DNA from: a virus
DNA: 64,000 nucleotides
Reading direction: 5' to 3' (one strand)
Virus record (IMG/VR): IMGVR_UViG_3300036834_000211
Location: 50,542-114,541 of that record
The notes beneath the pieces are model-generated. The model saw only the letters and a list, made by a program, of their open reading frames with translations, was not told the DNA's origin and ran no database searches. Positions 2,989-64,000 of the stretch are shown piece after piece (positions within the stretch are counted from its first letter, which is position 1; every line of letters begins with the position of its first letter). Made by a program: the position numbers and the translations under genes.

Positions 2989-4716
2989 GTGGCTACGGTT
3001 ATAGATGAACTCGTGGTCCGCCTAGGCCTCGACCCGACCGACTTCGACGAGGGCGAGGCCAGGCTCATCGCATCCCTGCGCAGGATGGAGGCCGCGGCCC
3101 AGCGCGGTGGTCGCCAGGTGACCGACACGGTCGGCAGGGACACGATCGCCTTCTTCCGCGCAGTCGAGAACCCGATCTCCGGGCTGCGACGGACCTTCGA
3201 GGGCATGGTACTCCAGACCGAGCGCACCCGCGAGAGCCTGCGGAAGACCGGCGAGGAGGGCGAGGCGTCCGGCGAACGCGTGGCCCGCGGTACGTCTGCC
3301 GCGACCGCGGCGATGCGCGGCCTCGGCGTCGCCGGCCTTGCCGCCTTCGCTGCGTACGAGGCGCTGAGCAAGACGCTCGGTGCAGTCACCGACGTCGCCG
3401 GGCGAGTGTTCGCCACCGGGATAGGTGCCGGTGCTGCCGGCATGGGTATCACCCAGTTCGGTGCGATCAGCCAGGCGCTGTTCGCTGGTGGCAACGTACC
3501 CCAGGCCGAGACTCAGAACTGGCTGGCCCAGTACTCCGAAATGCAAGGGCAGGCTGCCAGGGGTATCAGCCCCGGCATTGGCTTCATAACCAACCTGAAC
3601 AAGCTCCTCAACCAGGAGACCTTCACTGGCATCGACCCATTCCGAGACTCGCCCGAGCAGATAATAACCAAGCTGGCCGCCCAGCTCTCCGCCATGCCGG
3701 AGGCCCGGGCGTACAGCGCCGGCAATGCCCTCGGGCTGAGCCGGCAGATGGTCTCGGGCCTGCGCGCGGAGGGTGAGCGACTCCCGGCCGACATCGCGGA
3801 GCAGCGACGCAGGGCCCCGACCGGCGAGGATCTGAGGGCCGCGCAGCGCCTGATTCTGGCCGAGGACAAACTGGCCACGGCGTGGGAGAAGCTCGAGCGC
3901 GACCTACTACTCAGCGGTATTGCCGAGGGCCTGACCAGGTTGGCGTCGTGGCTCGATACGCTGATAGCCCCCGGATCCAACGACCCCCGCGGGTTCCTGG
4001 GGCGCTTCTTCGGCGGATCTCGCCCGGAGTACGGAGAGGGGGCAGTGGTCAGCGGAGGCTCCGGGGGACAACTGTCGCAGGTCGTCGCCGGCGGCCAGGC
4101 CGACCAGTTGGTCGACTACATCATCAAGCACGAGGGTCACTCCCCCACCGGCGTCGTGAACAACCCGGGCAACATCAAGTTCACCGGCGCCGAGGGGCAG
4201 ACCGACTCCGGCGTCCGCGCCACCGACGGCGGCACCTTCGCGTCCTACCCGACGCCGGAGGCTGGCCGCGCCGCCATCGCCGCTCAGATCAATAGGGCCG
4301 CGAGCGGACTGTCCACTGCGTACGGTCCCAATCCTACCGTCAGCAGTTTCTTGAGCAAGTACAGCGGCGGGGGATACAGCGGCTCGGATCTGGCCATCGC
4401 ACCACCGCCACCGACGACTCCTCCTCCCGCTGGCAAGCCCAGTACGGTGCACGTACCCGACCCGCTGGACTGGATACTGGGGCCGGTCGACCCGGTGGCG
4501 AAGGCTCCCATTCCCGCCAAGCAGGCTGCCCTTCGCTCCATCCAGATGGCAAACGCGACGAATAACACGTCGACGACGCACAACTACGGTGACCAGCACG
4601 TCGACATCACCGTCAACGCCCCGACGAGAGAGGCCACCGCAATTGCCAACTCGGTCAGCGACCAGGTGAGGCAGCTTCCGCCCATGGCCGGACCGGCCAA
4701 CACGGGTCTGGCGTGA
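2989..4716 (+). CDS. Tape measure protein with C-terminal lysozyme-like domain
   Basis: N-terminal ATVIDELVVRLGLD; Ala/Gly-rich helical body; HEG...NNPGNIK...FASYPTPEAG motif near the C-terminus. Confidence 0.85.
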   Translation: MATVIDELVVRLGLDPTDFDEGEARLIASLRRMEAAAQRGGRQVTDTVGRDTIAFFRAVENPISGLRRTFEGMVLQTERTRESLRKTGEEGEASGERVARGTSAATAAMRGLGVAGLAAFAAYEALSKTLGAVTDVAGRVFATGIGAGAAGMGITQFGAISQALFAGGNVPQAETQNWLAQYSEMQGQAARGISPGIGFITNLNKLLNQETFTGIDPFRDSPEQIITKLAAQLSAMPEARAYSAGNALGLSRQMVSGLRAEGERLPADIAEQRRRAPTGEDLRAAQRLILAEDKLATAWEKLERDLLLSGIAEGLTRLASWLDTLIAPGSNDPRGFLGRFFGGSRPEYGEGAVVSGGSGGQLSQVVAGGQADQLVDYIIKHEGHSPTGVVNNPGNIKFTGAEGQTDSGVRATDGGTFASYPTPEAGRAAIAAQINRAASGLSTAYGPNPTVSSFLSKYSGGGYSGSDLAIAPPPPTTPPPAGKPSTVHVPDPLDWILGPVDPVAKAPIPAKQAALRSIQMANATNNTSTTHNYGDQHVDITVNAPTREATAIANSVSDQVRQLPPMAGPANTGLA

Positions 4717-5393
4717 GCGGATTACCTCCCCTGCTCCTGCTGACCCAGGATGATCTCAGCATACTGTCGGAGTTCGGTCCACCGCAGTGGGGCATCTTCG
4801 ACGAGGGCGGGCAGCCCGTACTAATCTCGGAGTCTGTCGGAGAACTCGGGTACCACCGTGGGTACGACGTCTCAAACTATCCCCAGGAGATGGGGGCGTT
4901 CGCCAGCTACAACAAGGTTCAGATCCCCTACGACGCGAGGGTGACGCTGCTGTCCAGCCAGACGCGGGGACAGCTCCTCTCGATACTCGAGCCGGTTGCG
5001 GCGTCGCTCCAGTTGGTGGCGGTCGTGATGCCGGAGTACGGATACCCCAGCGCCAACGTGGTGGACTACGAATTCCGGCGCACGGTCAGGAGCGGCGTTA
5101 CACTAATTGCGGTGGAGGTGAGGCTCAAGGAGATCCGGACCCCGACTACCTCCACACTCTCCAGTTCTCAAGGTAACTCCACCTCGCCCGCCGGAGCCGG
5201 AGCCGGAACCTCGAGGCCCGTCGGACAGGTGAGCAACCAGGCGCTGGGAGGTGGACTCACCTCCAGCCTGTTCCCGTCGGCGACCAGCACCAGCTCGACG
5301 AATGCCGCTTTCCCGACTCAGAGCGGACCGGTCCAGCCGACGGATCGGTCGTCCCTCACGTCGCCCTGGGTCGCCATCCAACCCCCGACCTGA
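4713..5393 (+). CDS. Baseplate/tube-initiator protein
   Basis: Follows TMP; VSNYPQEMGAFASYNKVQIP motif; Ser/Thr-rich tail. Confidence 0.75.
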   Translation: MSGLPPLLLLTQDDLSILSEFGPPQWGIFDEGGQPVLISESVGELGYHRGYDVSNYPQEMGAFASYNKVQIPYDARVTLLSSQTRGQLLSILEPVAASLQLVAVVMPEYGYPSANVVDYEFRRTVRSGVTLIAVEVRLKEIRTPTTSTLSSSQGNSTSPAGAGAGTSRPVGQVSNQALGGGLTSSLFPSATSTSSTNAAFPTQSGPVQPTDRSSLTSPWVAIQPPT

Positions 5394-5404: not shown

Positions 5405-6649
5405 ATGCGCAGCCGACTCGGTCTCCTCCTCACGATCCTCCTCGTGCTCTCGCCCGCCGCGGCGAGGGCCCAGACCGCGTGCACGGTTCTCCCCCAGTCG
5501 TCCCTGCTCAATCTGTTCTCCGACGCCGCGCCGGTGGCCTCGATCGTCCCTGCCTACGTGCGCAACGCGATCTGTAGCTCTCTCAATCCGACGAATAATC
5601 TCTCGGACGTGGCGTCGCAGCAAACGTCGATAAATAATCTATTCGGACCTAATACTTATTTGAAGATCCTGGGTAGTGGGGCATTATCCGTTCCGTCATA
5701 TACATCATTGTCCACGCAGGGGACTCTGTCGGGAACGCCTGCGGGATCTTCGATTGATGTCAATTATGGGTCTACGACGCCACTCTCGACCATAGCAGTA
5801 ATCAGCGATACTGCGACGAATCAGCTGTTGGGAGGAGTAATACCAGCTCTCAGCATAGCTCACACGTTTGGCGGTACTGGAGCCGGTCCAGGCGCTCGAC
5901 AGGGGATTTTTGTTGATCTTGTCCAAAATGGAAATGTCGGTTCCGGTACGGGAGCCTTTCAAACTGGGATCTTTTCGAATGTGTGGGCCAGGAGCGGAAC
6001 CGGCGGCGGCCAATTCTACGCCTATGCAGGACAAGTAATCGACGACCTAAACGTCTCTCACTATGGTACGGTCGGTGGCGAGATCGACTTGGCATTGCAC
6101 CAGCCTGGGGCTGGGATCAAAGAAGGATGGGCGGTTGCGTCCACCCCGTTGGGGAGCGGGAACGACACACAGCAAGGTACCAACTATTCGGCCGGCTATG
6201 GGCTGTGGGCCGGCGGCTCGTGCGGGAATGGTGCACTCGCCGGGGGGAGCGCCTGCGCCGGCTTCAACACAGGCATTTCGTTCGGCCGCTCCGATAGTTA
6301 CTGGCCCATTTCCAACGCCGGTACGGTGATCGCCGCAACGCAAGGGGTCGGCACGATTGGTAATATGAAGGCGGCGCAGGGCATCGACATGCACAACGTC
6401 ACCTTCAGCACTTACGCGCTGAATTTCCCTGGATTCCAAGTCACTGGCGACGGCAGCCTATTTGCCGGCGGCGCATCGGGTCTCGGCGTGGCTAAGCAGT
6501 CGAGTGGTCCGGGTGCTGGACCGGGCGCCGCGGTCGTCAGGATAATTGCATTGCCGGGCACAACGGGAGGCACCTGCAAACTGGTGGCCTATGCCGGCAC
6601 GAGCACCACGGGTGTGCTCTTGGCTGATAACATTGGTAGCGGGTGCTGA
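5405..6649 (+). CDS. Gly-rich fibre/appendage-like protein with N-terminal signal peptide
   Basis: MRSRLGLLLTILLVLSPAAARA|Q; NNLSDVA fibre motif; Gly/Ser/Thr-rich; paired Cys. Confidence 0.7.
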   Translation: MRSRLGLLLTILLVLSPAAARAQTACTVLPQSSLLNLFSDAAPVASIVPAYVRNAICSSLNPTNNLSDVASQQTSINNLFGPNTYLKILGSGALSVPSYTSLSTQGTLSGTPAGSSIDVNYGSTTPLSTIAVISDTATNQLLGGVIPALSIAHTFGGTGAGPGARQGIFVDLVQNGNVGSGTGAFQTGIFSNVWARSGTGGGQFYAYAGQVIDDLNVSHYGTVGGEIDLALHQPGAGIKEGWAVASTPLGSGNDTQQGTNYSAGYGLWAGGSCGNGALAGGSACAGFNTGISFGRSDSYWPISNAGTVIAATQGVGTIGNMKAAQGIDMHNVTFSTYALNFPGFQVTGDGSLFAGGASGLGVAKQSSGPGAGPGAAVVRIIALPGTTGGTCKLVAYAGTSTTGVLLADNIGSGC

Positions 6650-6653
6650 GTAG

Positions 6654-7304
6654 ATGAGCGGCAGCCCGTGGGGGAGTCAATTTGGTCCCCAGTTCGGGAT
6701 CGGCATCCGTCCCGGTCCCTCGACGCTGCCGGTGCCTGGTGGGATCCCATACATACCGCCGCCGGCCGCGCCAAACCTCTCGACCGCCTACTCGATCGTC
6801 CCGACGAGCGAGGCGCCGGCCCAGCAGATCACGATAACGCTCGCCGGGCAGGCGTGCCTGATCAGACTGTACACGAAGAGCACCAACGTGCCGACGATCG
6901 ACCCGGGGGAGATCCCGACCGACCCCGAGCCGCGCTACGAGAACATCAACCCATGCTTCGTCGACGTGTATACCGGCAGCGGGGCTAACTTGATCGTGGG
7001 CGGGGTCTACGTCCGGCAGGGGACGCTGATCGTGCGCGACGTCTACCTGGGATTCGTCGGCGACCTCGTGGTCGTCGACACGACAGGCGCGGCCGAGGAC
7101 CCGCGCGGGGTGCCGGCGAGGCTGCCGCCGACCTACCTGAGGAATCAGACCCAGCTCGCCGAGTACCCACTGGCCGACGGCGACATGGCCCCACCGGCGG
7201 TGGCCGGCCGCATCCCCGGTATGGGGACTCGTTGGATACTGACGTACTGGCCGGTTGGTTCGTACGTGCCCGGATACTCCTTGCCGCGCTCGGTGGCAGC
7301 GTGA
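6654..7304 (+). CDS. Baseplate protein (plug-type)
   Basis: PAQQITITLAGQACLIRLY...YLGFVGDLVVVDTTG...GMGTRWILTY pattern; located before the hub gene. Confidence 0.7.
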   Translation: MSGSPWGSQFGPQFGIGIRPGPSTLPVPGGIPYIPPPAAPNLSTAYSIVPTSEAPAQQITITLAGQACLIRLYTKSTNVPTIDPGEIPTDPEPRYENINPCFVDVYTGSGANLIVGGVYVRQGTLIVRDVYLGFVGDLVVVDTTGAAEDPRGVPARLPPTYLRNQTQLAEYPLADGDMAPPAVAGRIPGMGTRWILTYWPVGSYVPGYSLPRSVAA

Positions 7305-8251
7305 GCAACGGCACCACTACCCTGCCGGACGTCTCGGTCACCGCCCAGGCTCCCTCGCCGGTCGTCACGACGCTCCAGGCACCCTACGCGGTCCGGAAGA
7401 TCGACCTCACGTTCCAGATCGGCACGGGGGACTTCGGTGTGTCCGGAGCGGACCAGCTCACCCTCACCGGCCTGCGCGTTTATGCCCACCTAGAGGCCGT
7501 CGTGTCTCCCCACATGGCCTCGGTCGCGTTGTTGCGCGTTTATGGTATGTCTCTCGACCACATGAACGCCGTCTCGGTGGCTGGATTGCTGTACCAGAGT
7601 CGGAAGAACCTGGTCCAGGTCAGGGCAGGAGACGACGCGTCCGGCATGACGACCGTGTTCGACGGTCTTATCACCGAGGCCTACCCGAAACTCGACGGTG
7701 GCGCTGACGATCGTCACTTCTACGTCTACGCGACGCCGGCCACTGCCATCCAGCTCAAGCCGGTCTCGCCGTCGAGCTACCCCGGCTCGGTGCCAGCGTC
7801 CCAGGTCCTCAAGACCCTGGCTCAGTCCGTCGGCTACACCCTCCAGGACAACGGCGTCACCGCCGTGCTACAGACTCCCTACCTGCCCGGCACGGTGTGG
7901 CAACAGATCCAGGCCGTCGTCGCAGCGGCGGACTGCTTCGCGTTCCTCGACAGCGTCAACAAGGTGCTGATCACCTGGTCGAAGAATAGCAAGACGACAC
8001 CTCCAGTGACGGTGATTGTGGGACCTCAGACCGGCATGATCAATTATCCGATGTTCCAGAATAAGCAGATCATCGTTCGCACGCTGTTCAGCCCGTCCAT
8101 GGCCATCTCTCCGGGCACTACCGTGCTCGTGCAGAGTGAACTGAAGGCTGCCAACAATGCTAAGCTGACCCTCAACATGGTTACCCACGAGCTGGAGTCT
8201 CAAGAGCCAGGTGGTCCCTGGGAGACTATCCTGATTGGGTCGCCGCCGTGA
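7301..8251 (+). CDS. Baseplate hub protein
   Basis: GTG at 7301 overlaps the previous stop; RKIDLTF, VYGMSLDHMN, GMINYP, HELESQEPGGPWET motifs. Confidence 0.8.
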   Translation: MSNGTTTLPDVSVTAQAPSPVVTTLQAPYAVRKIDLTFQIGTGDFGVSGADQLTLTGLRVYAHLEAVVSPHMASVALLRVYGMSLDHMNAVSVAGLLYQSRKNLVQVRAGDDASGMTTVFDGLITEAYPKLDGGADDRHFYVYATPATAIQLKPVSPSSYPGSVPASQVLKTLAQSVGYTLQDNGVTAVLQTPYLPGTVWQQIQAVVAAADCFAFLDSVNKVLITWSKNSKTTPPVTVIVGPQTGMINYPMFQNKQIIVRTLFSPSMAISPGTTVLVQSELKAANNAKLTLNMVTHELESQEPGGPWETILIGSPP

Positions 8252-8991
8252 GCGACGCCGACACCTACGCCTATGTGGGGGCCCAGGATGCCGGCACCAC
8301 CGTACATCCATTCAATACTACGGACTTCCACATCGACCAGGCCATCGCCGACGTCCGTACGGCTCAGTACGCGAAGGTGATTCGGGGCGCCTACGACGCT
8401 AACGGAAACGACATCCCGCCAGGTACCATAGGACCGATAGGCTTCGTCGACGTCCAGCCGCTGGTCAACCAGGTGGACGGCAACAACGGGAACTCCACAC
8501 CACACGGGACGATCTATAAGATCCCATACTTCCGGTACCAGTCCGCGCTCGGCGCGATCATCTCGAACCCGAAGAAGGACGACATCGGGGAGATCATCAT
8601 GCACGATCGGGACACCAGCGTCGTTCGGGCTACGGGAGCCCAGGGAAACCCGGGGTCGAGAAGACGGCACGACTTTGCTGATGCCGTATTTCACGGCTCG
8701 CACATTGACACCGGGACACCAACCCAGGGAGTAGCCTTCTCAGATACTGGCGTAAAGATATTCGACAAGAACCACAATACGGTCACGCTGGCCAACAACC
8801 TGATCACGATCAAGGTCGGAAATGCAACCTACACGTTCGATCAGAACGGGCTCTTTACAGCTAGTGGGAATGTTATTGCGGGCCAGGGCGGGTCGGATCA
8901 AGTGACGTTACAAGGACATCAGCATACTCAACCTAATGATAGTCATGGAGATACAGAACAACCTACGAATGCTCCTACCGCAGGTACTTAG
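8248..8991 (+). CDS. Baseplate central spike (gp138/gpV-like)
   Basis: GFVDVQPLVNQVDG, NPGSRRRHDFADA; C-terminal HQH metal-binding tip motif. Confidence 0.85.
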   Translation: MSDADTYAYVGAQDAGTTVHPFNTTDFHIDQAIADVRTAQYAKVIRGAYDANGNDIPPGTIGPIGFVDVQPLVNQVDGNNGNSTPHGTIYKIPYFRYQSALGAIISNPKKDDIGEIIMHDRDTSVVRATGAQGNPGSRRRHDFADAVFHGSHIDTGTPTQGVAFSDTGVKIFDKNHNTVTLANNLITIKVGNATYTFDQNGLFTASGNVIAGQGGSDQVTLQGHQHTQPNDSHGDTEQPTNAPTAGT

Positions 8992-9008
8992 GCGTAGCCT
9001 GCCAGCGA

Positions 9009-9102
9009 CTGCGCGTGCACTCCAGCTTGAAGAAAAGGGCGGCCGCTATGCGAGTAGCGGTCAGTGGTACCATCAGGCTGGACGAGCCTTAGAGACGATT
9101 TC
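9009..9102 (+). repeat. Dispersed ~94-bp structured repeat, copy 1
   Basis: CTGCGCGTGCACTCCAGCTTGA...TCAGGCTGGACGAGCCTTAGAGACGATTTC; matches 32475-32568 and the reverse complement of 58142-58232. Confidence 0.8.
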
Positions 9103-9114
9103 TGAGACATACAC

Positions 9115-9684
9115 ATGAACACCCTCGCCCTTTCCACCCCCGACCAGGACGGCACCGGCTGGGACCTGGTCGTCGAGAACGGCACCCTCAAGGTGAACTC
9201 CGGTGGTATCGCACTCGCACAGGATGTGGCAAGCGCCGTCCGCACGTTCCGAGGTGAGTGCTGGTACGACTCGACGCTCGGCGTGCCGTACTTCCAGAAC
9301 ATCCTCGGCCTCCGCGTTAGCCTGCAGTTTCTGAAGCAGGCGCTTGTGACGGCTGGGCTGGTCGTCCCCGACGTGGCCTCGATCAAGTGCTTCCTGACCG
9401 GGCCGGGCTCGGGCCGAGAGATCGGTGGTCAGCTCCAGATCACCAGCTCGAGTGGGCAGGTCTCGGTGGTCGAGACCGGAAACCTGCTCGGCGTCGCGCC
9501 GTGGTGGGTGAGTGCGGTCTCGGGAGACATTGCCGCAACTCCTCCGATGGCCGGTGGAAGCGACTTCGGACCGCCGGACTTCGGACCGCCGGACTTCGTC
9601 CAAGGTGATGCTACTGCAACTCAGACTGTACTCACCGGAGGCGGGGTCCCACTTACGGGAGGGGGTAAGGTATTGACACAATGA
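9115..9684 (+). CDS. Baseplate wedge/sheath initiator (gp25-like) with C-terminal extension
   Basis: WDLVV...LAQDVASAVRTFRGECWYDSTLGVPYFQNILG; extension contains a 15-bp tandem repeat (9562-9597, DFGPPDFGPPDF). Confidence 0.8.
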   Translation: MNTLALSTPDQDGTGWDLVVENGTLKVNSGGIALAQDVASAVRTFRGECWYDSTLGVPYFQNILGLRVSLQFLKQALVTAGLVVPDVASIKCFLTGPGSGREIGGQLQITSSSGQVSVVETGNLLGVAPWWVSAVSGDIAATPPMAGGSDFGPPDFGPPDFVQGDATATQTVLTGGGVPLTGGGKVLTQ

Positions 9685-11396
9685 GGATCATCCTGCGCAT
9701 CCTCGCCGCGTTCCTGGGTGCCGTCGCGGCTAGTCACTTGGCCCACTCGCAGCAGCAGGAGATAGAGGCGTACGTGTACGGCCAGTCCCAGGCGACTCAG
9801 CCGTACTCATCGGGTCTACTCATCCCGGCAATCCCCAACCCCAATCGATTCTCCCTGCTCAGCATTCCGGCGAATGCCTTCCTGTACACCAGTGGCGTGC
9901 CCAACGCTCCCTTCCTGAGCGGATCTGGTGGCGGCTTCCAGGGATTAACGGGATCTGCGGCGACGGCCCTACTCTCCCCCTGTACCTCGACGGTCCAAGG
10001 GGTCGTCCCCACCCCGCCGAACGATGCCACCAAGTTCCTAAATGGGAAGTGCTCGTTCGCTTCCTCCGGCTCCGTAAGTCCGGACGTCATGGGCGCCCCG
10101 CACAACGGGACGTCCGACGACTCGTCAGGCTTCAGCGCAGCGCTGGCGACCGGTATTCCGGTTCAGATGGTGTGCAACGGTACTCCCTACAAGCTGACGA
10201 GTAACGTCATCATAGCCACCCCGGCGCACCTGATGGGCTGCGGGACGATCCTGGGGTCCCCGATCAATCTATCCGGTGCGTCCGCGGGAATAACCATAAC
10301 GTCGAGCGGAGTGATCGTCGAGAACGTCCACGAGGTCGGCGATCGCACTACTGGGCAAGTCGGCATAAAACTGACCGGCGGCAGCCGAGACCTCGTCCGC
10401 AATGTCCAAGTCGAGTTGGCCGACATCTGCTTCCAGCAGGGCGTGGGGGCCGGAGTAATCAACAACTGGGAGCACATCTATGGCAGGAACTGCAAGAGCA
10501 TCTTCGCGACCTTCCAGGACGGTATAGGACCGATCATCGACGAGGCACTTTACGACACCGACGTGGGCTCATACGCGGATCCCCAGGGTATAGTAGTCGA
10601 GACGGAGGGTGTATTCATGACCAGGGCCGACATCCTGGACACCACGTACCCGCTCATAATACAGTGCAACGGGGCTCACCACGCGAACGGTCCGATATGG
10701 GGGGAGTACGGGCTCAACTTCTTCGACATCTCACAGCAAGGGGTCTTGATCACCAACCAGTCCGGTGGGGGATGTTCCGTGAGGGGAGAGCACTTCCACG
10801 GGACGTGGTTTGCCACCTCCACGAACAATGGTCTGACTGTCACTACCGACTCGCTGAGCAGCATCCAGACCGTGCTGTGCGACGGGTGCCAGATTCACAA
10901 TAATGGGGCCCATGGCGTCAGTCTATCGGGTAACTCCAACGACATCATCTTCAACGGCTCCATAATCTCCGGGAACGGGAGCGCGAGCGGCAGCGCCTAC
11001 GACAACGTCAAGATAGCCACCACCGCCCCGCTGGACACCATCGTGTTCAACGGTGGTATAATTGGTAGGGCGGAGGGCGAGACCGCGCTTCCCAAGTACA
11101 ACTTGGAGATAACGACTCCGTCGTACGTCCGGATAACCGGGACGTACTTCGATGTGGGTGGGGTGACAACCGCGAACATCGTGAACCCCGGAGGTGCCAA
11201 CATACAGACGGACGGTCTCTCCGGATTCGAGACTACGGCATCGACGCTCGGTCCCTGCACAACTGGCAACGCCGGGAACAGGACGTCGATATCCGACGCG
11301 ACGTCGGGGACGTTCGGAGCCCCCGTGGGAAGTGGGGGCTCCCACCACGTACTGGCATACTGCGACGTATCGGTATCTGGTTGGGTAGTCCATTAG
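9681..11396 (+). CDS. Beta-helix tailspike/depolymerase-like protein with signal peptide
   Basis: MRIILRILAAFLGAVAASHLAHS|Q; GAPHNGTSDDSSGFSAAL pectate-lyase-like entry motif followed by beta-helix-like repeats. Confidence 0.75.
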   Translation: MRIILRILAAFLGAVAASHLAHSQQQEIEAYVYGQSQATQPYSSGLLIPAIPNPNRFSLLSIPANAFLYTSGVPNAPFLSGSGGGFQGLTGSAATALLSPCTSTVQGVVPTPPNDATKFLNGKCSFASSGSVSPDVMGAPHNGTSDDSSGFSAALATGIPVQMVCNGTPYKLTSNVIIATPAHLMGCGTILGSPINLSGASAGITITSSGVIVENVHEVGDRTTGQVGIKLTGGSRDLVRNVQVELADICFQQGVGAGVINNWEHIYGRNCKSIFATFQDGIGPIIDEALYDTDVGSYADPQGIVVETEGVFMTRADILDTTYPLIIQCNGAHHANGPIWGEYGLNFFDISQQGVLITNQSGGGCSVRGEHFHGTWFATSTNNGLTVTTDSLSSIQTVLCDGCQIHNNGAHGVSLSGNSNDIIFNGSIISGNGSASGSAYDNVKIATTAPLDTIVFNGGIIGRAEGETALPKYNLEITTPSYVRITGTYFDVGGVTTANIVNPGGANIQTDGLSGFETTASTLGPCTTGNAGNRTSISDATSGTFGAPVGSGGSHHVLAYCDVSVSGWVVH

Positions 11397-11407
11397 TCGT
11401 GGCTTTC

Positions 11408-12688
11408 ATGGTTAGACTCCTCAAGTACTTCTGCACCATTGTCGTACTCGCCACTGCCACACAGGTGCAGGCTCAGACTATTAAGACGCAGTCGGCGCTG
11501 ATAACCGAGTGGCAGCCCTGCTCTGTGCTCGGTCAGCCAAGCGCGTGCCACGGCAGCTCGACGCAGATTCAGGACATCATTCAGTCGGTGGCTCCCTGGG
11601 CGTGGACGCTCAGTCCGAGCGGGCCGATCCCGTCGGCTCTGCTCTCCCCCTGCACTACGACGGTCCAGGGGGCCGTACCAGCGCCGCCGAACGATGCCAC
11701 CAAGTACCTCAACGGACAGTGTCAGTGGTCGGGGTTGGCGATTGAAGCTCCTAACTACACGAATCCGTCTGGAGGATTGAATGGAGGATTTCGGGTTGAA
11801 AATATCGCTACTCTAGCACCGAGTAACCCTGGGGTAAACAATGCGATTAGCATCTCGGCGTTCATCGATAATCTGAATGGCCGTGGGTCGGGGGGTACAT
11901 TGGCAAACCCTCAGCTCATCGAAGCGATAAATCCGCTCTGCAATCAGTTCGCTGTCGCCCAAGGAGGGTCGGTATCGGACGTACAGTGCGTCGAGAGTGA
12001 TGTACTTCAGAGCTTCGCGCCAACTAATGTCGATGAGCCGTTCAATGCGAACTCTCCGACAGTTTTTGCCTACTCGGCGACCGCCGAACGCAATACTACA
12101 GGAGCGACGCCACAGCGGCCAAATGGCGCCTACATGGTGGTATCGGCCAACACTGCGAACACCAACGATTGGTTTGCTTATGGACTTGTCCTCAGCCGAG
12201 TACAATATGAAGGGATTAGGATCGAGGATTTCCCACTCGACACGCTCCACGGCTTCACTCATGCAGCCATCTCCGATTATAGCAACTCTGCGCGAGTGCT
12301 GAATATTAAGGGCACGCACGCGACTGCCATTGTCGACATGAGTGGGGAGGTTGGCATACCAAATTTCATCCTAGGACCCTCTAGCGTAAGTGCGAATTTC
12401 GTGGTGGCGAATAGCGCAAATTTTAACACCGAGTGGAGTGTGGACTCCGGTGGTACCGCCGCGGAGTTCTCAATAATGGGATGGCGCGACCGCGGCGCAG
12501 AAGAGTATCAAATACTGAAGAACGCGTCCAACAACTTGCAATTTGTCGACTTTGTCCACACTGTGACGTTTATGAATTATGTACAATCGACGCAAGTATT
12601 GGAGATATCCCACATCCCCACCTCGTGCTCCGGACACCCGTCTGGGACTGAGTGGAATAATGCTGGAGTGGTGAATATCTGTCCATGA
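11408..12688 (+). CDS. Fibre/appendage-like protein with signal peptide
   Basis: MVRLLKYFCTIVVLATATQVQA|Q; shares LLSPCT.TVQG.VP.PPNDATK.LNG.C with the 9681 protein; lower GC. Confidence 0.7.
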   Translation: MVRLLKYFCTIVVLATATQVQAQTIKTQSALITEWQPCSVLGQPSACHGSSTQIQDIIQSVAPWAWTLSPSGPIPSALLSPCTTTVQGAVPAPPNDATKYLNGQCQWSGLAIEAPNYTNPSGGLNGGFRVENIATLAPSNPGVNNAISISAFIDNLNGRGSGGTLANPQLIEAINPLCNQFAVAQGGSVSDVQCVESDVLQSFAPTNVDEPFNANSPTVFAYSATAERNTTGATPQRPNGAYMVVSANTANTNDWFAYGLVLSRVQYEGIRIEDFPLDTLHGFTHAAISDYSNSARVLNIKGTHATAIVDMSGEVGIPNFILGPSSVSANFVVANSANFNTEWSVDSGGTAAEFSIMGWRDRGAEEYQILKNASNNLQFVDFVHTVTFMNYVQSTQVLEISHIPTSCSGHPSGTEWNNAGVVNICP

Positions 12689-14121
12689 GCGACGGCTTCG
12701 TCACCGCCGTCCCCCAGCCGACCTTCGGTCCGAGGGGGGTCGTCCTCCCGACCGAAGACGCGGCGCTCGCCGGCGTCCAGGTCGACATCAATGCTGCACT
12801 CGGCGGGGGCATCAACCCGCAGCTGACGAATCCGACGGGACAGATTGCGGTCACCGAGACCGCGGTCATCGGCGACAGCTGGGCGCAGCTTGCGTGGTTC
12901 TTCTCTCAGATAGATCCGGCGCTCAACTCCGGTCGCGGTCAGGACGCGATCGGCCGCATCTACTTCCAGGACCGGATCTCGGCGCAGCCGACCGTCCAGC
13001 CGTGCACCTGCGTCGGCCTTAACACCACGCCGATCGGCGTCGGCTCCCAGGCGCGGGATCCCAACACGGGCCTGATCTGGCTCTGTACGCAGGCCGGCGA
13101 GATCGGGGTGTCCGGATCGGTCACGCTGGAGTTCTCCTGCGGGACGAGCGGCCCGATCGCCGCCCCGGCGAGCTTGAACATCTACCAGCAGATCTACGGG
13201 TGGGAGAGCGTCACACCGAGTGGACCGGCAGTGCTCGGGAACCTCGTCGAAACCCCCACCCAGTACGAGCTCAGGCGGCAGCTCTCGGTCGCAGCCAACG
13301 CCATTCAGATACTTGACGCGATTCAGGGGACGGTGCTCGCGCTCCCCGGCGTCCTCGACTGCTACTGCCTCGAGAACAATCTGCCCACGGTTGCGGTCGT
13401 CGGGGGTGTCACGATCGGACCAAACTCGATCTACGTCGCCGTCCTGGGTGGGAGTCAGACGGCCATCGCCGCCGCAATTTACTCGAAGAAGGGACCGGGC
13501 TGCGGCTACAACGGCAATACCTTCACGACGGTCCCGGACCCAAATCCCGCCTACAACGCGCCGCCACCGCAGTACAGCGTTGGGTACACGGTTCCGACGA
13601 TCGTTGCGTTCGTCGTACTCGTCACCCTGAGCAACAACCCGGGCGTACCGTCGAACGCGCTGGCGCTGATCCAGCAGTCAATCATCAACGCCTTCAACGG
13701 TCTTGACAACGGGCCTCGCGCTAAGATAGGCTCGCGCGTGCTCGCCAGTCGGTACTACGGTGGCGTGGCGTCCCTCGGGTCGTGGGCTCAGATCGTCGGC
13801 ATCGACCTCGGCGTGCTCGGCAACGGGGCCTCATTCACCGGGTCGATATCCGGCACCACCCTGACGGTGTCGACGGTCGCTGGCGGGACCCTGGCAGCCG
13901 GCCAGATCATCCAGGACGCTGGGGTCGTGTCGATGGGGACGTTGATCCAGTCTCAGTTGCCCGGTGGCACGCCGGGGGGCGTGGGGACGTACCAGGTTAG
14001 CATATCTCAGACCGTGACCCCCGAGTTGATGACGACGACCACCCTCGTGGACTCCACGACGATGAACATCAACCAGGTCCCGGCCGTGTCCGCTCTAAAC
14101 ATAAATTTAATATTGGTATAA
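12685..14121 (+). CDS. Baseplate J-like protein with C-terminal extra domain
   Basis: GRGQDAIGRIYF, ELRRQLSVAANA, SIYVAVLGG, KKGPGCGYNGNT motifs; added FTGSISGTTLTV...GGVGTYQVS domain. Confidence 0.85.
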   Translation: MSDGFVTAVPQPTFGPRGVVLPTEDAALAGVQVDINAALGGGINPQLTNPTGQIAVTETAVIGDSWAQLAWFFSQIDPALNSGRGQDAIGRIYFQDRISAQPTVQPCTCVGLNTTPIGVGSQARDPNTGLIWLCTQAGEIGVSGSVTLEFSCGTSGPIAAPASLNIYQQIYGWESVTPSGPAVLGNLVETPTQYELRRQLSVAANAIQILDAIQGTVLALPGVLDCYCLENNLPTVAVVGGVTIGPNSIYVAVLGGSQTAIAAAIYSKKGPGCGYNGNTFTTVPDPNPAYNAPPPQYSVGYTVPTIVAFVVLVTLSNNPGVPSNALALIQQSIINAFNGLDNGPRAKIGSRVLASRYYGGVASLGSWAQIVGIDLGVLGNGASFTGSISGTTLTVSTVAGGTLAAGQIIQDAGVVSMGTLIQSQLPGGTPGGVGTYQVSISQTVTPELMTTTTLVDSTTMNINQVPAVSALNINLILV

Positions 14122-14492: not shown

Positions 14493-14657
14493 ATGAACGA
14501 ATCCACTTGGAATAGGACGATCGCGCAGCGCGCGCTGTCTATGGGTCGCAGTGCGAGCCGTCACATTAGTTGGCATGATGGCTTCGTAGTTGGCGTGTGG
14601 ACGGGAGCTCTAGGAGTAGCGATTTTTATCGTTATCGCCAAGTTGCTTCTTGGATGA
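14493..14657 (+). CDS. Small membrane protein (54 aa)
   Basis: Hand-translated: MNESTW...GFVVGVWTGALGVAIFIVIAKLLLG; GAGG RBS; TGA overlaps the next ATG (ATGA). Confidence 0.55.
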   Translation: MNESTWNRTIAQRALSMGRSASRHISWHDGFVVGVWTGALGVAIFIVIAKLLLG

Positions 14658-15337
14658 AGAACTGGCGGCAGACGGTCCAGTCGGAGTACGCCAGTAGCCC
14701 GCGCCTGATGTCGCTGCTGACCGCGATCGAGGCGTGGCTGTCGCCGGACGCCAACTACGAGAACTTCTACCAGCTAGTCTGGAACGTCGACCAGGCCGCC
14801 GCAAACGACTCCACCTACGGCCTCGACGTGTGGGGTAGGATCGTCAACATTCCCAGGACCGTGACGATCGCCGGCGGTGCCCCGACGTTCGGCTTCGGCG
14901 AGGCCGGCGACAGGGTCGGCTTTGGTCAGGGCCCGTTCTACGAGGCGTCCATCGGGGTCACCGAGAACTTCGTGCTCGCCAACTCGGTCTACTACCAGCT
15001 CATCCTGGCGAAGGCAGCGTACAACATTACGAACGGTTCGACGCAGGCGATAAACGCCCTATTGATGAACCTGTTCGTCGCCCGCGGTAACTGCTGGGTG
15101 ACCGACGGTCGCAACGTCCCTGGATCAACGTCGTTCGGCTTCGGCGAGGCTGGCGACCGGGTGGGCTTCGGCCAGGGGCCGTTCGGAGATCTGATCTACT
15201 CCACGCTGCCGGAAAACATGACGCTGACCTACGTGTTCACATTCCCGCTCGCGCCGTTCGAGAAGGCAATCGTCACATCTGGCGTTCTGCCCAAGCCAAC
15301 CGGCGTGCTGGCAACCTGGGCATTCCTCGGGGGTTAG
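14654..15337 (+). CDS. Baseplate wedge protein (DUF2612-like)
   Basis: SEYASSPRL, YGLDVWGRIVNI, LILAKAAYNI, LPKPTGV motifs; duplicated FGFGEAGDRVGFGQGPF. Confidence 0.85.
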   Translation: MKNWRQTVQSEYASSPRLMSLLTAIEAWLSPDANYENFYQLVWNVDQAAANDSTYGLDVWGRIVNIPRTVTIAGGAPTFGFGEAGDRVGFGQGPFYEASIGVTENFVLANSVYYQLILAKAAYNITNGSTQAINALLMNLFVARGNCWVTDGRNVPGSTSFGFGEAGDRVGFGQGPFGDLIYSTLPENMTLTYVFTFPLAPFEKAIVTSGVLPKPTGVLATWAFLGG

Positions 15338-15343
15338 ACAAAA

Positions 15344-16045
15344 GTGCAGCTCAGCCAAATCCCGACCAAGTTCCCGGCCGTCTGGGCACACGGCGCCGTC
15401 GCTCCGTACATCAACACGATCCCGGCGCCCTCCCAGCAGAGCGTCAGGAGCGGCGCGGCGAGTCTCTTCGACGGCTTCCCGCCGTTGTGCTTCGTGCCGA
15501 TCGCGACCGGTGGTGCCGGGCCGTTTGGTGGGGATACCAACGGCATCCTCAACCAGATAACCGGTGGCCTGCAGTGGCAGCAGGCCGGAGCCCCGTTCAC
15601 ATTCGACCCCGCGTGGGCCGCAGCTGTCGGTGGGTACCCGCTGGGCTCGCTGATCCCGTCGGACTCGACCCCTGGGCAGTTTTGGTACAGCACGGTCGAC
15701 AACAACTCGGCCGACCCGGACACGGGCGGTGCCAACTGGCTGTCGTTCGCGATGCTGCTGGGCGGTACGACGAACGCACAGATCATCCAGACGGGACGCT
15801 CCCCCGCGATCAACCTGTCGGGTGGGGTCGGGCAGGTCACGACTCCATTCCCGAACGCCTTTCCTCACGCCTGCCTCGGAGTGATCGGCTGGGCCGATGG
15901 TATTGACCCGTTCGTAGTGGGTTCCGCGGTGGTCTTCGCAGGCAACACCTACACAGCCTCCAACTTCAACCTACTGGCGGCTACCCCAGCACAGCCCACC
16001 AGTACTGCGACGGTGCACGCCATCTTCGTAGCGGTAGGATACTAA
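15344..16045 (+). CDS. Tail fibre protein (short)
   Basis: GAASLFDGFPP...GGYPLG...STVDNNSADPD N-terminal anchor; FPNAFPHAC...AVGY C-terminal gp53-like motif. Confidence 0.8.
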   Translation: MQLSQIPTKFPAVWAHGAVAPYINTIPAPSQQSVRSGAASLFDGFPPLCFVPIATGGAGPFGGDTNGILNQITGGLQWQQAGAPFTFDPAWAAAVGGYPLGSLIPSDSTPGQFWYSTVDNNSADPDTGGANWLSFAMLLGGTTNAQIIQTGRSPAINLSGGVGQVTTPFPNAFPHACLGVIGWADGIDPFVVGSAVVFAGNTYTASNFNLLAATPAQPTSTATVHAIFVAVGY

Positions 16046-16047
16046 CG

Positions 16048-16584
16048 ATGACCCAGTACGCGTACTTCGACCCGACCAAGCCCGACCCCAAGCCGGTACT
16101 CGGCTGGTACGACACGACGTGGGCACACTACCCGAACCTACCCGACGCGTCGAACCTCCTGGGGATGTCTCAGCAACAGTGGGCGGCGCGCCTGGGGGGC
16201 CTCTGGGCGGTGCAGGGTGGTACGCTCGTCCCCTACTCCCCACCGGTGCCGGCTCCATCACTCGCGCAGCAGGCGGCGACGATGCTGGCCGGTGGCCTGA
16301 TGGTATCTAGCTCGGGCGACGGTGCCCTCAACGCGACCTATCCCTGCGACTCACTCACTCAGCAGCACGTGTCCGCCGAGATCGTCAGCCTACTGCTGAA
16401 CGGAACGTTCACTGACGGTGCGACGACGATCTCCTGGCTCGACGCAGCGGGGAATGCCCACGCGCTCTCGATCGATCAGTACAAGTCCTTGGCGACCGCG
16501 CTTGCGGCGTTCGTGACGAGCTGCGTGAGGTGTATCAGCGGCCAGTCGACGACCCTCCCCTCGAACCAGGCGACGATCCAGTGA
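16048..16584 (+). CDS. Tail fibre assembly protein (DUF4376-like)
   Basis: Directly follows the fibre gene; PVLGWYDT, ATYPCD, WLDAAG motifs. Confidence 0.7.
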   Translation: MTQYAYFDPTKPDPKPVLGWYDTTWAHYPNLPDASNLLGMSQQQWAARLGGLWAVQGGTLVPYSPPVPAPSLAQQAATMLAGGLMVSSSGDGALNATYPCDSLTQQHVSAEIVSLLLNGTFTDGATTISWLDAAGNAHALSIDQYKSLATALAAFVTSCVRCISGQSTTLPSNQATIQ

Positions 16585-17492
16585 CGATCGTCCTGCGCGA
16601 TCCAGCCGGGGAGGACGCCAGCTTCGCGATCAACGCGGCGCTCCAGCAGGCTGCCGTGCTCGGCGGCAGCGAGGTCGTACTCTCGGCGGGGCGCTATCTG
16701 GTGCCGGCGACGTCCAGCATCAGGTGGCCGGCGAACGCCAACGGCGTTAGCCTGATCGGCGAGGGCCCTCTGGCCTCGGTGATCCAGGCCAAGGGAGGCA
16801 GGTACTCCGACCTGCTCGACCTGACCACCGGGAACCTGGCCCACGTCAGGATTGCGGGGGTCGGGATCTCGGCCCTCGGCGTCATCGGCTCCGGGGCGAT
16901 GATCCACGCGGCCAACTGCTACGACCTGCTGATCGACCGCGTGCGGCTGGACGGGCCGTTTAATGACGGCATCGTGATCGACGGCGGACAGAACCAGTAC
17001 CTCACTACGATCACTTGCGTCACGATGCCGGGGGACCCTCGCTCCTACCGCTGCCTGGTCATCGGAGAGAGCGGATACCCGCAGGATACGTACATCAACC
17101 TGTGCAAGTTCGCCGCGACTCAGTACGGGATATGGGTGCAGAACGCCGGAGGCGTCTACCCGTCCTCAACGGAGACTCTCGGCCACGTCCAGCACGGGTT
17201 CATCACCTACCCCGGCGGCGGGCAAAATGTCGACTGGGTCCAGGCGACCCAACTCCTCGCCGACTCGTGCGGGGGAACTGGGATCTACCTCGGATCGGGC
17301 GGGGGAGCCGTCCGCGGCGTCTCGCTCTCGAACTCGTGGTCGTCGTCCAACACCAACGGGGTCGAGATTGCACCGGAGTGCGACGACGTCTGCTTCGACG
17401 CCACGACCCGCTTCCTCGCTAACCGCAACCGGTCGGTGATCGACTACGGCGGGACCAACGTCAGGATCTCGGCCTGGATGGACAGGCCCTAG
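16581..17492 (+). CDS. Pectate-lyase-like beta-helix protein
   Basis: GTG at 16581; DASFAINAAL...EVVLSAGRYLV...VSLIGEG motif. Confidence 0.75.
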   Translation: MTIVLRDPAGEDASFAINAALQQAAVLGGSEVVLSAGRYLVPATSSIRWPANANGVSLIGEGPLASVIQAKGGRYSDLLDLTTGNLAHVRIAGVGISALGVIGSGAMIHAANCYDLLIDRVRLDGPFNDGIVIDGGQNQYLTTITCVTMPGDPRSYRCLVIGESGYPQDTYINLCKFAATQYGIWVQNAGGVYPSSTETLGHVQHGFITYPGGGQNVDWVQATQLLADSCGGTGIYLGSGGGAVRGVSLSNSWSSSNTNGVEIAPECDDVCFDATTRFLANRNRSVIDYGGTNVRISAWMDRP

Positions 17493-17815
17493 TGGACCGG
17501 ATTACCACCATTCGGTTGAGAAGGCTGGGATGGTGGTGGCTGAGACTGGCCGTTAGCTAGCTCGGCCTGCTGCTTGTTGATGCCATCGACGTATTCTTTA
17601 ATCCACTTGTCCTTCGCCGTGACTTGCTCCTGTAGCACCGCCAGTTGGCCCTCGGTCTGCCCCAGCTTGAACAGTAGCTGGGCGGTGCCTATGTGCTGCT
17701 GCGCCTCCGCTGAAAGCGTACTCTGCTGAAGCGTGACCTCCGGGGCGGTCTGGGCATTGGCCGACCACGCGATGAGCGTGCCGACGCCGGCTGCTAGGAT
17801 CCTGTCGCGCATCAT
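17489..17815 (-). CDS. Small exported coiled-coil protein
   Basis: Signal peptide ending WSANA|Q; strong GAGGAG RBS. Confidence 0.7.
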   Translation of the reverse strand: MMRDRILAAGVGTLIAWSANAQTAPEVTLQQSTLSAEAQQHIGTAQLLFKLGQTEGQLAVLQEQVTAKDKWIKEYVDGINKQQAELANGQSQPPPSQPSQPNGGNPVH

Positions 17816-17847: not shown

Positions 17848-17874
17848 GAGCCCCTGCCTCGGGGCTCTTTTTTT
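17848..17874 (+). terminator. Rho-independent terminator (possibly bidirectional)
   Basis: GAGCCCC-TGCCTC-GGGGCTC followed by T7; the opposite strand has ATTTT after the stem. Confidence 0.75.
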
Positions 17875-18380: not shown

Positions 18381-18565
18381 TGAGATGCTCCAGAAGGCTC
18401 GGAGAATAACCATAGCGCCCACCCGCTGACGGCAATTATGCCACCGGCCTGGAATGTAGTGGGATCGTACTCGCACGCAGCTAGAGCAGCTAGGACAGCA
18501 CCTCCGCCCGACAATGCGAATAGGGCTGTCCACGCCCACCACGGACGCCTCTGTGGCTTTGTCAT
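18377..18565 (-). CDS. Small two-TM membrane protein
   Basis: Two hydrophobic segments; coupled overlaps on both sides. Confidence 0.6.
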   Translation of the reverse strand: MTKPQRRPWWAWTALFALSGGGAVLAALAACEYDPTTFQAGGIIAVSGWALWLFSEPSGASQ

Positions 18566-63180: not shown

Positions 63181-64000
63181 ATGAACAGGTTGTTGCGACT
63201 CTCGATCGCCGCGGCTGTCCTCGCGCTCGGGTGGATCCCCATGGCCCACTCTGATCCAGTCTCCCAGCAACTCAGCGTCGCCGGGTACAAGTCCGTCAGT
63301 CTCCCCTGCGCGACGGACGTCCTCATCCCGGTCGTCCCGAGCGGGTCAGCCCTGACGTCGCAGTACCTCTCGTGCGCCAATCTCTTGACGTTCGGTCTCA
63401 TCGGCTCCACACTGCCGGGAACGCCCACGCGGTACCTCGGCCTCGACGCCGGTAACAATCTAGTGACCGGGATACCAGCCGGCGGAGGTGGCGGGGGAAG
63501 TGGCAACGTGTCGGGACCAGGCTTCTCCTCCAACCTGTTCGTCCCGCAGTGGGTTGGGACGACCGGATCGCTCCTCGGTACCGGGCTTCCGGTGAGCCAG
63601 GCCGGCGGCTCCGGTAATGCGATCGTCGAGTCCACGGCGGGCGGTACCATCGCCAACTCGTGGATCTCGGGCCTGCCCAACTCGAACCTGGCCAACTCGA
63701 CGATCGGGGTATCGGTCCCGTCTTGGCTCGTCGCACCCTCGTCGGTTGCACTTGGTGGAACCTTGACGATCGCTGGTGCCTCGCTCCCCTCCAACCAGTT
63801 CCTCGCCACTCCGAACGGTACCTCCGGGGCTCTGGCACCGAGGGCGATCGTATCGGCCGACCTGCCGCTCGGGTCCAGTTCCCAGTCCGGAGTCCTGGAG
63901 TGCGGGACCGGTACGGCCTGCAGTGCCGGCGTGATAACCGCGTACGTCAACCCGACGCTCAATAACGCCCAGTTCCTGGGTTACGGCGCCGGGTCGGGGT
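63181..64000 (+). CDS. Gly/Ser-rich fibre-like protein with signal peptide; 3' truncated by window edge
   Basis: Hand-translated MNRLLRLSIAAAVLALGWIPMAHS|D...GGGGGSGNVSGP...RAIVSADLP; open to the window end. Confidence 0.7.
   Translation, partial: MNRLLRLSIAAAVLALGWIPMAHSDPVSQQLSVAGYKSVSLPCATDVLIPVVPSGSALTSQYLSCANLLTFGLIGSTLPGTPTRYLGLDAGNNLVTGIPAGGGGGGSGNVSGPGFSSNLFVPQWVGTTGSLLGTGLPVSQAGGSGNAIVESTAGGTIANSWISGLPNSNLANSTIGVSVPSWLVAPSSVALGGTLTIAGASLPSNQFLATPNGTSGALAPRAIVSADLPLGSSSQSGVLECGTGTACSAGVITAYVNPTLNNAQFLGYGAGSG

Follow-up and report, generated by a model that had tools for sequence, protein, structure and literature searches.

Phage tailspikes with a right-handed beta-helix are described in CBA120 (TSP3), Sf6 and HK620. 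Proteins of a similar build that are exported have also been described, indeed the bacterium Bdellovibrio bacteriovorus encodes mosaic adhesive trimer (MAT) fibres, shown on its own surface, in which a signal peptide is followed directly by a conserved N-terminal domain and then a variable body, often ending in an S74 chaperone-protease (PMC10769870). Similarly, WceF of Pantoea stewartii, a host gene in an EPS cluster, is an exported trimeric beta-helix with a tailspike fold that lacks a capsid-binding domain, uses a Tat signal and acts on exopolysaccharide (PMC7949094). Phage genes with export signals, some lying among tail genes, include lambda Lom and Bor, Llp and Cor, and the signal-peptide and SAR endolysins, for which Sec-dependence is established (PMC6116005). 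Classical morons are small and have their own promoter and terminator. Finally, in the cultured Cellulophaga phage phi18:3 (NC_021794), a podovirus of Bacteroidota, the large consecutive late proteins gp085-gp087 have short leaders with A↓Q or S↓Q sites (the arrow marks the predicted cleavage site) and are annotated in the GenBank record as structural or tail proteins from MS/MS.

Here we describe an uncultured phage with a contractile tail that carries three large fibre- or spike-like genes with predicted bacterial secretion signals inside its baseplate operon, and about twenty such genes genome-wide, amounting to 19% of the record. The stretch analysed (the window) is the 64,000 nucleotides at bases 50542-114541 of the 114,541-bp IMG/VR record IMGVR_UViG_3300036834_000211, which is rated 94% complete. 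No paper describing this pattern was found.

The baseplate operon and its inserted genes

The features of the window are as follows, with P0001, P0002 and P0003 denoting the products of the three inserted genes.

4713..5393 (+), backbone gene (phrog_1830) upstream of P0001, no leader
5405..6649 (+), P0001, 414 aa, leader residues 1-22 (5405-5470, ARA↓Q), 6 Cys in the mature part including 391 and 414, inserted between the phrog_1830 gene and the baseplate plug
6654..7304 (+), baseplate plug (Pam3 gp18-like), no leader
7232..8251 (+), baseplate hub (E217 gp41-like), start uncertain (7232 or 7301)
9115..9684 (+), gp25-like baseplate wedge subunit (phrog_120), no leader
9681..11396 (+), P0002, 571 aa, leader residues 1-23 (9681-9749, AHS↓Q), conserved post-leader module at about 25-75, Cys-flanked fibre motif at about 101-126, predicted right-handed beta-helix at 130-515 and a short unmodelled C-terminal part, 12 Cys in the mature part including 526 and 561
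11408..12688 (+), P0003, 426 aa, leader residues 1-22 (11408-11473, VQA↓Q), Cys-flanked fibre motif shared with P0002, 8 Cys in the mature part including 407 and 425
12685..14121 (+), baseplate J (gp6-like) wedge protein, no leader
14597..15337 (+), DUF2612 baseplate protein
15344..16045 (+), ordinary leaderless tail fibre
16048..16584 (+), leaderless DUF4376 tail-fibre chaperone, whose paralogue with a leader lies outside the window at genome 3623-4162
16581..17492 (+), leaderless beta-helix protein with 7 Cys, an odd number
17489..17815 (-), small protein of 108 aa with a leader (ANA↓Q) and no Cys, possibly a lysis or spanin-type protein
17848..17867 (no strand), strong two-way terminator-like hairpin that closes the operon
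63181..64000 (+), N-terminal 273 aa of a long fibre-like protein with a leader (AHS↓D), cut by the end of the record; first gene after a NusG-like gene (62675-63166)

The backbone is a canonical baseplate operon, running from a TMP-like gene through phrog_1830, the plug, the hub, the gp25-like wedge and baseplate J to DUF2612, and it is followed by its own leaderless fibre, chaperone and beta-helix at the canonical place. The order wedge J, DUF2612, fibre and DUF4376 chaperone is that of the host-recognition module of Alteromonas phage V22, from which the chaperone role of DUF4376 proteins is also known (PMC7289586, PMC10579305), although the V22 module as tabulated lists no gene between gp21 and gp22. 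The three genes are insertions into this operon, as Burkholderia phage PE067, which has the same baseplate type, has nothing at either insertion site. All three inserted genes carry a leader against 0 of 15 backbone genes (Fisher p=0.0012), and in PE067 only the two spanins and two small early genes have clear leaders, none of which lies in the baseplate or tail genes.

The inserted genes are tightly packed, with gaps to their neighbours of -4 to 11 nt. The ATG of P0002 overlaps the stop codon of the gp25-like gene and the stop codon of P0003 overlaps the ATG of baseplate J, and no terminator comparable to that at the end of the operon flanks them. They are extra genes between conserved neighbours, as morons are, yet no promoter or terminator of their own was found. 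GC3 is 0.65 for P0001 and 0.62 for P0003, whilst P0002 at 0.77 lies at the lower edge of the range of the core genes (0.76-0.89). The record start (genome 2-2584) encodes 860 aa that share a 159-aa stretch at 67% identity with the fibre-like protein at 63181.

Leaders, cysteines and predicted folds

The initial annotation had reported that these three genes and that at 63181 begin with signal peptides, that their bodies resemble fibres or beta-helix spikes with paired Cys, including C-terminal pairs, and that the fibre at 15344 and the beta-helix gene at 16581 have no such leader; this observation is confirmed and reaches further than was reported. Each of the four proteins starts with 1-3 basic residues, an uncharged hydrophobic run of 11-16 residues, too short for a stable membrane anchor, and a small-x-small site, in keeping with a Sec/signal peptidase I signal peptide. 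Leaders were scored by our own -3/-1 and hydrophobicity rules rather than by a trained predictor. As a loose scan of all possible starts gives many false positives in high-GC DNA, the count of about 20 rests on first-start, operon-consistent ORFs only. The leaders of P0001, P0002 and P0003 lack a twin-arginine motif (S/T-R-R-x-F-L-K), and with Gln at +1 in all three there is no lipobox. Neither P0001 nor P0002 hit any Pfam family at E up to 0.01, P0001 has no PHROG hit, and P0003 has only one sub-threshold, unrelated hit (ivWA-helical_N, 17.2 bits against a cut-off of 27), thus the C-terminal sorting domain expected of T9SS cargo was not found.

The starts are fixed by the operon packing, by the presence of only 4 codons between the upstream stop and the ATG of P0002, and by the conservation of P0002 residues about 25-75, directly after the leader, in four metagenomic proteins that also carry leaders. 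The start of P0003 is the least certain, as its ORF opens at a TTG at 11381 and IMG called a short form of 317 aa (P0009); however, a motif 56% identical to P0002 over 46 aa lies upstream of that start. Shine-Dalgarno signals are weak throughout.

Homologues keep the leader whilst its sequence changes. In the P0001 family it is kept at 37-47% global identity, with hydrophobic leaders in all of the homologues P0004-P0007 and that on the podovirus fragment L008, and it is also kept in the closest P0002 relatives (P0010, P0011, P0012 and P0021) and in the relatives of its N-terminal module (P0041, P0044, P0047 and P0059). Two of the conditions that would have refuted the initial proposal, leaders that are not conserved and true starts lying downstream, were thus examined and do not apply. 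Furthermore, 15 of the 17 Cys-containing mature parts have an even number of Cys (binomial p=0.0012) against 30 of 67 other proteins of the phage (Fisher p=0.002), although cleavage sites were picked by rule and leader Cys were removed on that basis. A widespread tail-fibre motif is flanked by two Cys in 8 of 9 leader-bearing proteins and in 0 of 16 leaderless ones (Fisher p=8e-6; p=7e-5 without the two from this phage). Gln is found at +1 in 11 of 20 leaders, against a Gln frequency of 3.6%.

A structure model of P0002 is a confident right-handed beta-helix over residues 130-515 (pLDDT above 90), matching CBA120 TSP3, the Sf6 tailspike, AlgE epimerases and GH87, whilst residues 21-130 are unmodelled. 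It differs from the tailspikes in its predicted Sec leader, in a different N-terminal region in place of the virion-binding domain, and in its 12 Cys. Distant P0002 relatives without a leader have long leaderless N-terminal extensions ahead of the beta-helix, whereas P0012 and P0021 go from the leader straight into the beta-helix. No particle-binding N-terminal domain was recognised, with no Pfam or PHROG hit; the post-leader module of P0002 shows no likeness to the N-domain of the leaderless fibre (hhalign probability 0.4%), and that fibre is the only protein in our set with the canonical N-domain motifs tested, which no leader-bearing protein has. A model of P0001 built from 7 sequences reached a pLDDT of only 31 and was not used.

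The wider set of about 20 leader-bearing proteins also includes a GH5-like enzyme, a pectate-lyase-like beta-helix, a CVNH lectin and the second DUF4376 chaperone, which follows the leader-bearing fibre cluster and is 45% identical to the leaderless copy that follows the ordinary fibre. The leader-bearing copy scores above the Pfam cut-off of 25 bits (25.7) and the window copy just below it (22.8).

Possible roles of the leader-bearing proteins

The interpretation in the initial annotation, that these proteins are exported, disulfide-folded and attached to virions during or after lysis, or alternatively act as released depolymerases or receptor decoys, is partly supported. Conserved leaders, fixed starts, even Cys counts, the covariation of leader and Cys pair, the excess of Gln at +1 and the insertion into a complete operon are what the analysis itself shows, whereas translocation, cleavage, disulfide bonding, trimerisation, action on glycans and any docking to particles are inferred from sequence and prediction. 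Export and disulfide folding can be held with high confidence on these computational grounds, whilst attachment is neither shown nor excluded, and the alternative of released depolymerases or decoys is at least as likely.

In the explanation we favour the proteins are products of real late genes, taken across the inner membrane by Sec, cut by signal peptidase I, mostly exposing an N-terminal Gln, and stabilised by disulfide bonds outside the cytoplasm. Their mature parts would be fibre-like or tailspike-like proteins that bind or cut glycans, made together with the wedge proteins but not core baseplate parts. They would accumulate in the envelope of the infected cell and work there, and after lysis, as accessory factors that are free or envelope-bound, recognising and stripping surface or matrix glycans of the host, and so may destroy receptors, clear matrix or block other phages. 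Taken as a whole we regard this as about as likely as not, and the role as free accessory factors remains tentative. It draws on the predicted beta-helix, the enzymes and lectin in the set, the leader in place of an anchor, and the complete operon with its own fibre; furthermore the P0001 family also sits in T7-like podovirus modules and so moves between tail types. It would seem less easily reconciled with the ATGA overlaps with wedge genes, the absence of an own promoter or terminator, the fibre-like build, the leader-bearing chaperone and the lack of an enzyme signature in P0001 and P0003. In addition, in the podovirus fragments L007-L009 the P0001 homologue is the only fibre-like gene seen next to the tail-tube genes.

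A less likely but possible alternative is that the proteins are virion appendages matured in the periplasm. In this view they are exported, trimmed to pyroglutamyl N-termini, trimerised and disulfide-bonded, some with the exported DUF4376 chaperone, and dock onto finished cytoplasm-built particles once the holin opens the inner membrane, or in the lysate. The phage would then have two sets of host-recognition parts, one built in the cytoplasm and one in the periplasm, and the covariation of leader and Cys pair would mark a whole uncultured lineage of such fibres. The translational coupling to wedge genes fits this, as do the fibre motif shared with true leaderless tail fibres, the leader on a fibre of more than 1100 aa, the leader-bearing chaperone, the share of the genome invested, and a post-leader module that is shared by proteins with different bodies, as anchor domains are. 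Phage phi18:3 provides a proteomic precedent, although MS/MS of virion preparations can include co-purifying proteins, and gp085-gp087 have few Cys, show no sequence similarity to the proteins described here and appear to be the main appendages of that phage rather than insertions into a complete baseplate operon. Against it, no docking domain was recognised, the genes are absent from related baseplates, some close P0002 homologues have no room for an N-terminal anchor, and no route or precedent for such assembly is described in the papers searched.

It would seem unlikely that the proteins serve mainly as decoys or exclusion factors, masking or removing the receptor on the infected cell and so stopping superinfection and the sticking of progeny to debris. 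They are built from receptor-binding-type modules, and the exclusion proteins Llp and Cor, encoded next to tail genes, are exported. However, those are small lipoproteins whereas the proteins here are 414-571 aa without a lipobox, late expression leaves little time for exclusion, and twenty genes is a large outlay for this role. That the proteins are not exported at all, the hydrophobic N-termini being miscalled starts or helices used in cytoplasmic assembly, is very unlikely despite the IMG short form of P0003 and the weak Shine-Dalgarno signals, given the operon packing, the conservation right up to the leader in P0002, the leaders kept in homologues, and Cys and Gln patterns that are hard to explain without export.

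Textbook assembly of tailed phages takes place wholly in the reducing cytoplasm, yet here a fifth of one genome is committed to proteins that carry every sequence mark of export and oxidative folding. If they are free factors, this phage has an unusually large secreted toolkit for glycan recognition and depolymerisation, made together with the tail, which would matter for how phages escape capsule, biofilm and cell debris. If they join the particle it would be a new assembly route, and would also explain why such genes are missed or mis-started by annotation pipelines. The covariation of leader and Cys pair gives a simple sequence rule for finding and sorting such proteins in metagenomes, and as cultured phages share the trait the question is open to work at the bench.

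Distribution of relatives and affinities of the phage

The P0001 family has no relative in 185,579 species genomes or in cultured phages, P0002 has no match in cultured phages and a word-indexed search found only P0002 itself, and no relatives of P0003 were found. Scans for the P0002 clade found nothing in the viral, metagenome or genome contigs searched, and protein-atlas comparisons gave only weak leads, to unnamed clusters and to HylP-like fibres at 0.82-0.83. The MAT fibres are compared here by their build rather than by homology, and an S74 chaperone-protease is not seen here. A paper on a Tunturi phage mentions neither signal peptides nor fibres.

With regard to the host, no tRNA genes were found. 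The Gln at +1 recalls the rule described for Bacteroidota, yet the GC content is 60%. The tail genes are nearest to phages of Pseudomonadota, at about 44% identity. The ribonucleotide reductase is matched by that of Bradyrhizobium phage BDU-MI-1 at 43% identity.

Leader-bearing genes in the baseplate operon and across the record

The IMG/VR virus record is 114,541 bp in length and rated 94% complete, with the window taking up bases 50542-114541. The record belongs to a contractile-tailed phage with a DUF3383 sheath, an E217/Pam3-type baseplate, a 7-deazaguanine gene cluster and a class II ribonucleotide reductase (window 54980-58138), for which the best match in a cultured phage is in Bradyrhizobium phage BDU-MI-1 (43% identity over the full length). 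The initial annotation had drawn attention to three large genes in the baseplate operon, and a fourth following a NusG-like gene, that begin with a signal peptide-like leader. This observation holds, with the four ORFs existing as had been described:

Window 5405-6649: P0001, 414 aa
Window 9681-11396: P0002, 571 aa
Window 11408-12688: P0003, 426 aa
Window 63181 to the end of the record (64000): fibre gene, cut by the record end

Each begins with a basic n-region, an uncharged hydrophobic run of 11-16 residues and a small-x-small site that is followed by Gln, or by Asp in the fourth. The fibre gene at 15344 and the beta-helix gene at 16581 are leaderless, again as the initial annotation had stated. 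The gene at the 3' end of the record and the open frame at its 5' end (genome 2-2584) share a 159-aa stretch at 67% identity; the assembly probably broke inside a repeat-bearing fibre gene of a circular or permuted genome, or between two paralogous fibre genes.

The starts of these genes are well constrained, as the gaps to the neighbouring genes are -4 to 11 nt, with ATGA overlaps between the gp25-like gene and P0002 and between P0003 and baseplate J. Furthermore the sequence directly after the leader of P0002 is conserved in four leader-bearing metagenomic proteins. The gene call of IMG for P0003 is a 317-aa short form (P0009), however this drops the leader and cuts off a motif shared with P0002 at 56% identity and we therefore take it to be wrong; it may be that annotation pipelines routinely mis-start such genes.

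The pattern is not confined to the baseplate operon. When the same rule-based scan was applied to the whole record about 20 leader-bearing genes were found, which together make up 7,328 codons or 19% of the record, and include a cluster after the NusG-like gene, five consecutive genes upstream of the neck and sheath genes and two next to the head-morphogenesis genes. In the control phage PE067, a Burkholderia phage with the same baseplate type, only the two spanins and two small early genes have clear leaders, none of which lies in the baseplate or tail genes. Within the operon studied here, 3 of 3 inserted genes carry a leader against 0 of 15 backbone genes (p=0.0012).

Evidence bearing on the use of the leaders

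Four lines of evidence indicate that the leaders are used. The first is conservation, with all homologues of P0001 that could be retrieved (P0004-P0007 and a protein on the podovirus contig L008, at 37-47% global identity and 45-57% over the best local segment) beginning with a hydrophobic leader of different sequence. Of these P0006, P0007 and the L008 protein pass our leader rules, whilst P0004 and P0005 have the hydrophobic stretch but fail them. An exhaustive phmmer search with P0002 gave 64 hits, of which the closest (P0010, P0011, P0012 and P0021) and those matching its N-terminal module (P0041, P0044, P0047 and P0059) all carry leaders.

The second line is Cys parity. Once the leader is removed, 15 of the 17 Cys-containing proteins in the set have an even number of Cys (p=0.0012), compared to 30 of 67 of the other proteins of the phage (Fisher p=0.002). 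The third is covariation, in that a widespread tail-fibre motif (G-x-V-P-x-P-P ... F-L-x-G) is bracketed by two Cys in 8 of 9 leader-bearing cluster representatives and in 0 of 16 leaderless ones (Fisher p=8e-6, or 7e-5 without the two proteins of this phage). In P0002 a disulfide is predicted across this motif, for example between residues 101 and 124. The representatives are related and the p-values therefore overstate independence, nevertheless the split is nearly perfect.

The fourth line is that Gln follows the predicted cleavage site in 11 of 20 leaders, against a Gln frequency of 3.6%, and does so in most homologues. This has been described as a rule for signal peptidase I substrates of Bacteroidetes and has been seen on Porphyromonas phage genes (PMC5837995, PMC10367356), yet this phage has a GC content of 60% and its tail genes are nearest to those of phages of Pseudomonadota. 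In addition, a leader-bearing protein of 102 aa (L005:7942-8250, where L004 and L005 denote further stretches of the record) has a CVNH (cyanovirin-like) lectin domain and four Cys.

The proteins and their place in the operon

The model of P0002 comprises a leader helix, an unmodelled stretch (21-130), a beta-helix with pLDDT above 90 (130-515) and an unmodelled tail. Foldseek places the predicted helix with CBA120 TSP3 and the Sf6 and HK620 tailspikes, but also with secreted bacterial beta-helix enzymes such as AlgE epimerases, GH87 glucanases and RbmB. More distant sequence relatives of P0002 have no leader and have long N-terminal extensions ahead of the beta-helix, whereas P0012 and P0021 go from the leader straight into the helix. 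P0001 and P0003 hit no curated family above threshold and no usable model of P0001 was obtained; their neighbours in a protein atlas are unnamed clusters, with fibre-like HylP families further down. Other members of the predicted exported set are GH5-like, pectate-lyase-like and DUF4376 proteins, as follows:

L004:4640-6052 and L004:6057-7553: leader-bearing paralogues with 12 and 14 Cys, the first with a GH5 cellulase-like hit just above the Pfam cut-off (24.0 against 23.5 bits)
L005:1424-3898: leader-bearing protein of 824 aa with a pectate-lyase-like domain and a head-decoration PHROG hit, next to the head-morphogenesis genes
L004:3623-4162: leader-bearing DUF4376 protein

PE067 has nothing between the phrog_1830-like gene and the plug, nor between the gp25-like gene and J, and the published module of Alteromonas phage V22 has the same order of J, DUF2612, fibre and DUF4376 chaperone (PMC7289586, PMC10579305). 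The three genes are therefore insertions. The GC3 of P0001 and P0003 is 0.65 and 0.62 respectively, against 0.76-0.89 for the core genes, whilst that of P0002 is 0.77. A gene in a backbone position (window 8248-8991) also has a low GC3 (0.67) and no family hit; PE067 has a gene of similar size at this place. There is no room for the inserted genes to have their own promoter or terminator, and the operon ends at a strong hairpin at 17848-17867.

Homologues of P0001 sit in podovirus modules, T7-like in the contigs L008 and L009, just upstream of the gp11-like tail-tube or adaptor gene; in the podovirus fragment L007 this places the homologue between the capsid gene and the adaptor gene. The cassette therefore moves between tail types and keeps its leader. 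In both T7-like contigs (L008:3267-6370 and L009:1109-4212) four to five tandem paralogues of the gp11-like tail-tube protein (phrog_394) directly follow the leader-bearing homologue.

DUF4376 proteins are experimentally defined tail-fibre chaperones that are encoded just after the fibre gene (PMC7289586, PMC10579305). The leaderless copy (window 16048-16584) follows the leaderless fibre, whilst a paralogue that is 45% identical over 95 aa (genome 3623-4162) carries a leader and follows the leader-bearing fibre genes, each thus lying after fibre genes of the matching kind. This suggests that at least the long fibre is folded where it is exported.

Interpretation and neighbouring genes

The leaders, the late operon context, the status of the three genes as insertions, the predicted beta-helix fold and the Cys signatures can all be read from the sequence, whereas Sec export, cleavage and disulfide folding are inferred from it, albeit with high confidence. 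The interpretation in the initial annotation, that these proteins could be exported, disulfide-folded and attached to virions, or else act as released depolymerases or decoys, is partly supported: export and disulfide folding are strongly supported by the sequence evidence, whilst attachment to virions is neither shown nor excluded.

Beyond export, two readings compete. We lean, tentatively, towards the proteins being accessory factors, free or envelope-bound, that would bind or cut host surface glycans, as the baseplate is complete without them, they lack the fibre N-domain, a leader replaces the anchor in close relatives and the set contains plain enzymes and a lectin. It would seem less likely that they are virion appendages, however this reading is kept alive by the translational coupling to wedge genes, the fibre-like build, the predicted exported chaperone and a conserved post-leader module. 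Furthermore there is a precedent that we examined directly, as gp085-087 of the cultured Cellulophaga phage phi18:3 have leaders with Gln at +1 and are annotated as virion proteins from MS/MS. A role as decoys or in exclusion is unlikely, and that there is no export at all is very unlikely.

Export signals on phage endolysins are established (PMC6116005), and exported tailspike-like or fibre-like proteins are known from bacteria, namely WceF, which uses Tat (PMC7949094), and the MAT fibres of Bdellovibrio, which have a signal peptide followed by a conserved N-domain (PMC10769870). We found no paper that describes Sec leaders on fibre or tailspike homologues inside the tail operons of tailed phages. 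Exported phage proteins and tailspike-like glycan enzymes are already known, and the genes described here differ as a variant of these; they would be categorically new only if the appendage reading proves true.

Just downstream of the leader-bearing fibre cluster lie genes for a glycosyltransferase-sulfotransferase fusion (L004:8906-10306) and a subtilase of family S8 (L004:10332-11390), neither of which has a leader, and which may modify or process fibres or host glycans. The phage also encodes a protein with a sigma-70 region 2 (window 17889-18542, minus strand) and the NusG-like protein (window 62675-63166, plus strand), the gene for the latter directly preceding the leader-bearing fibre cluster.
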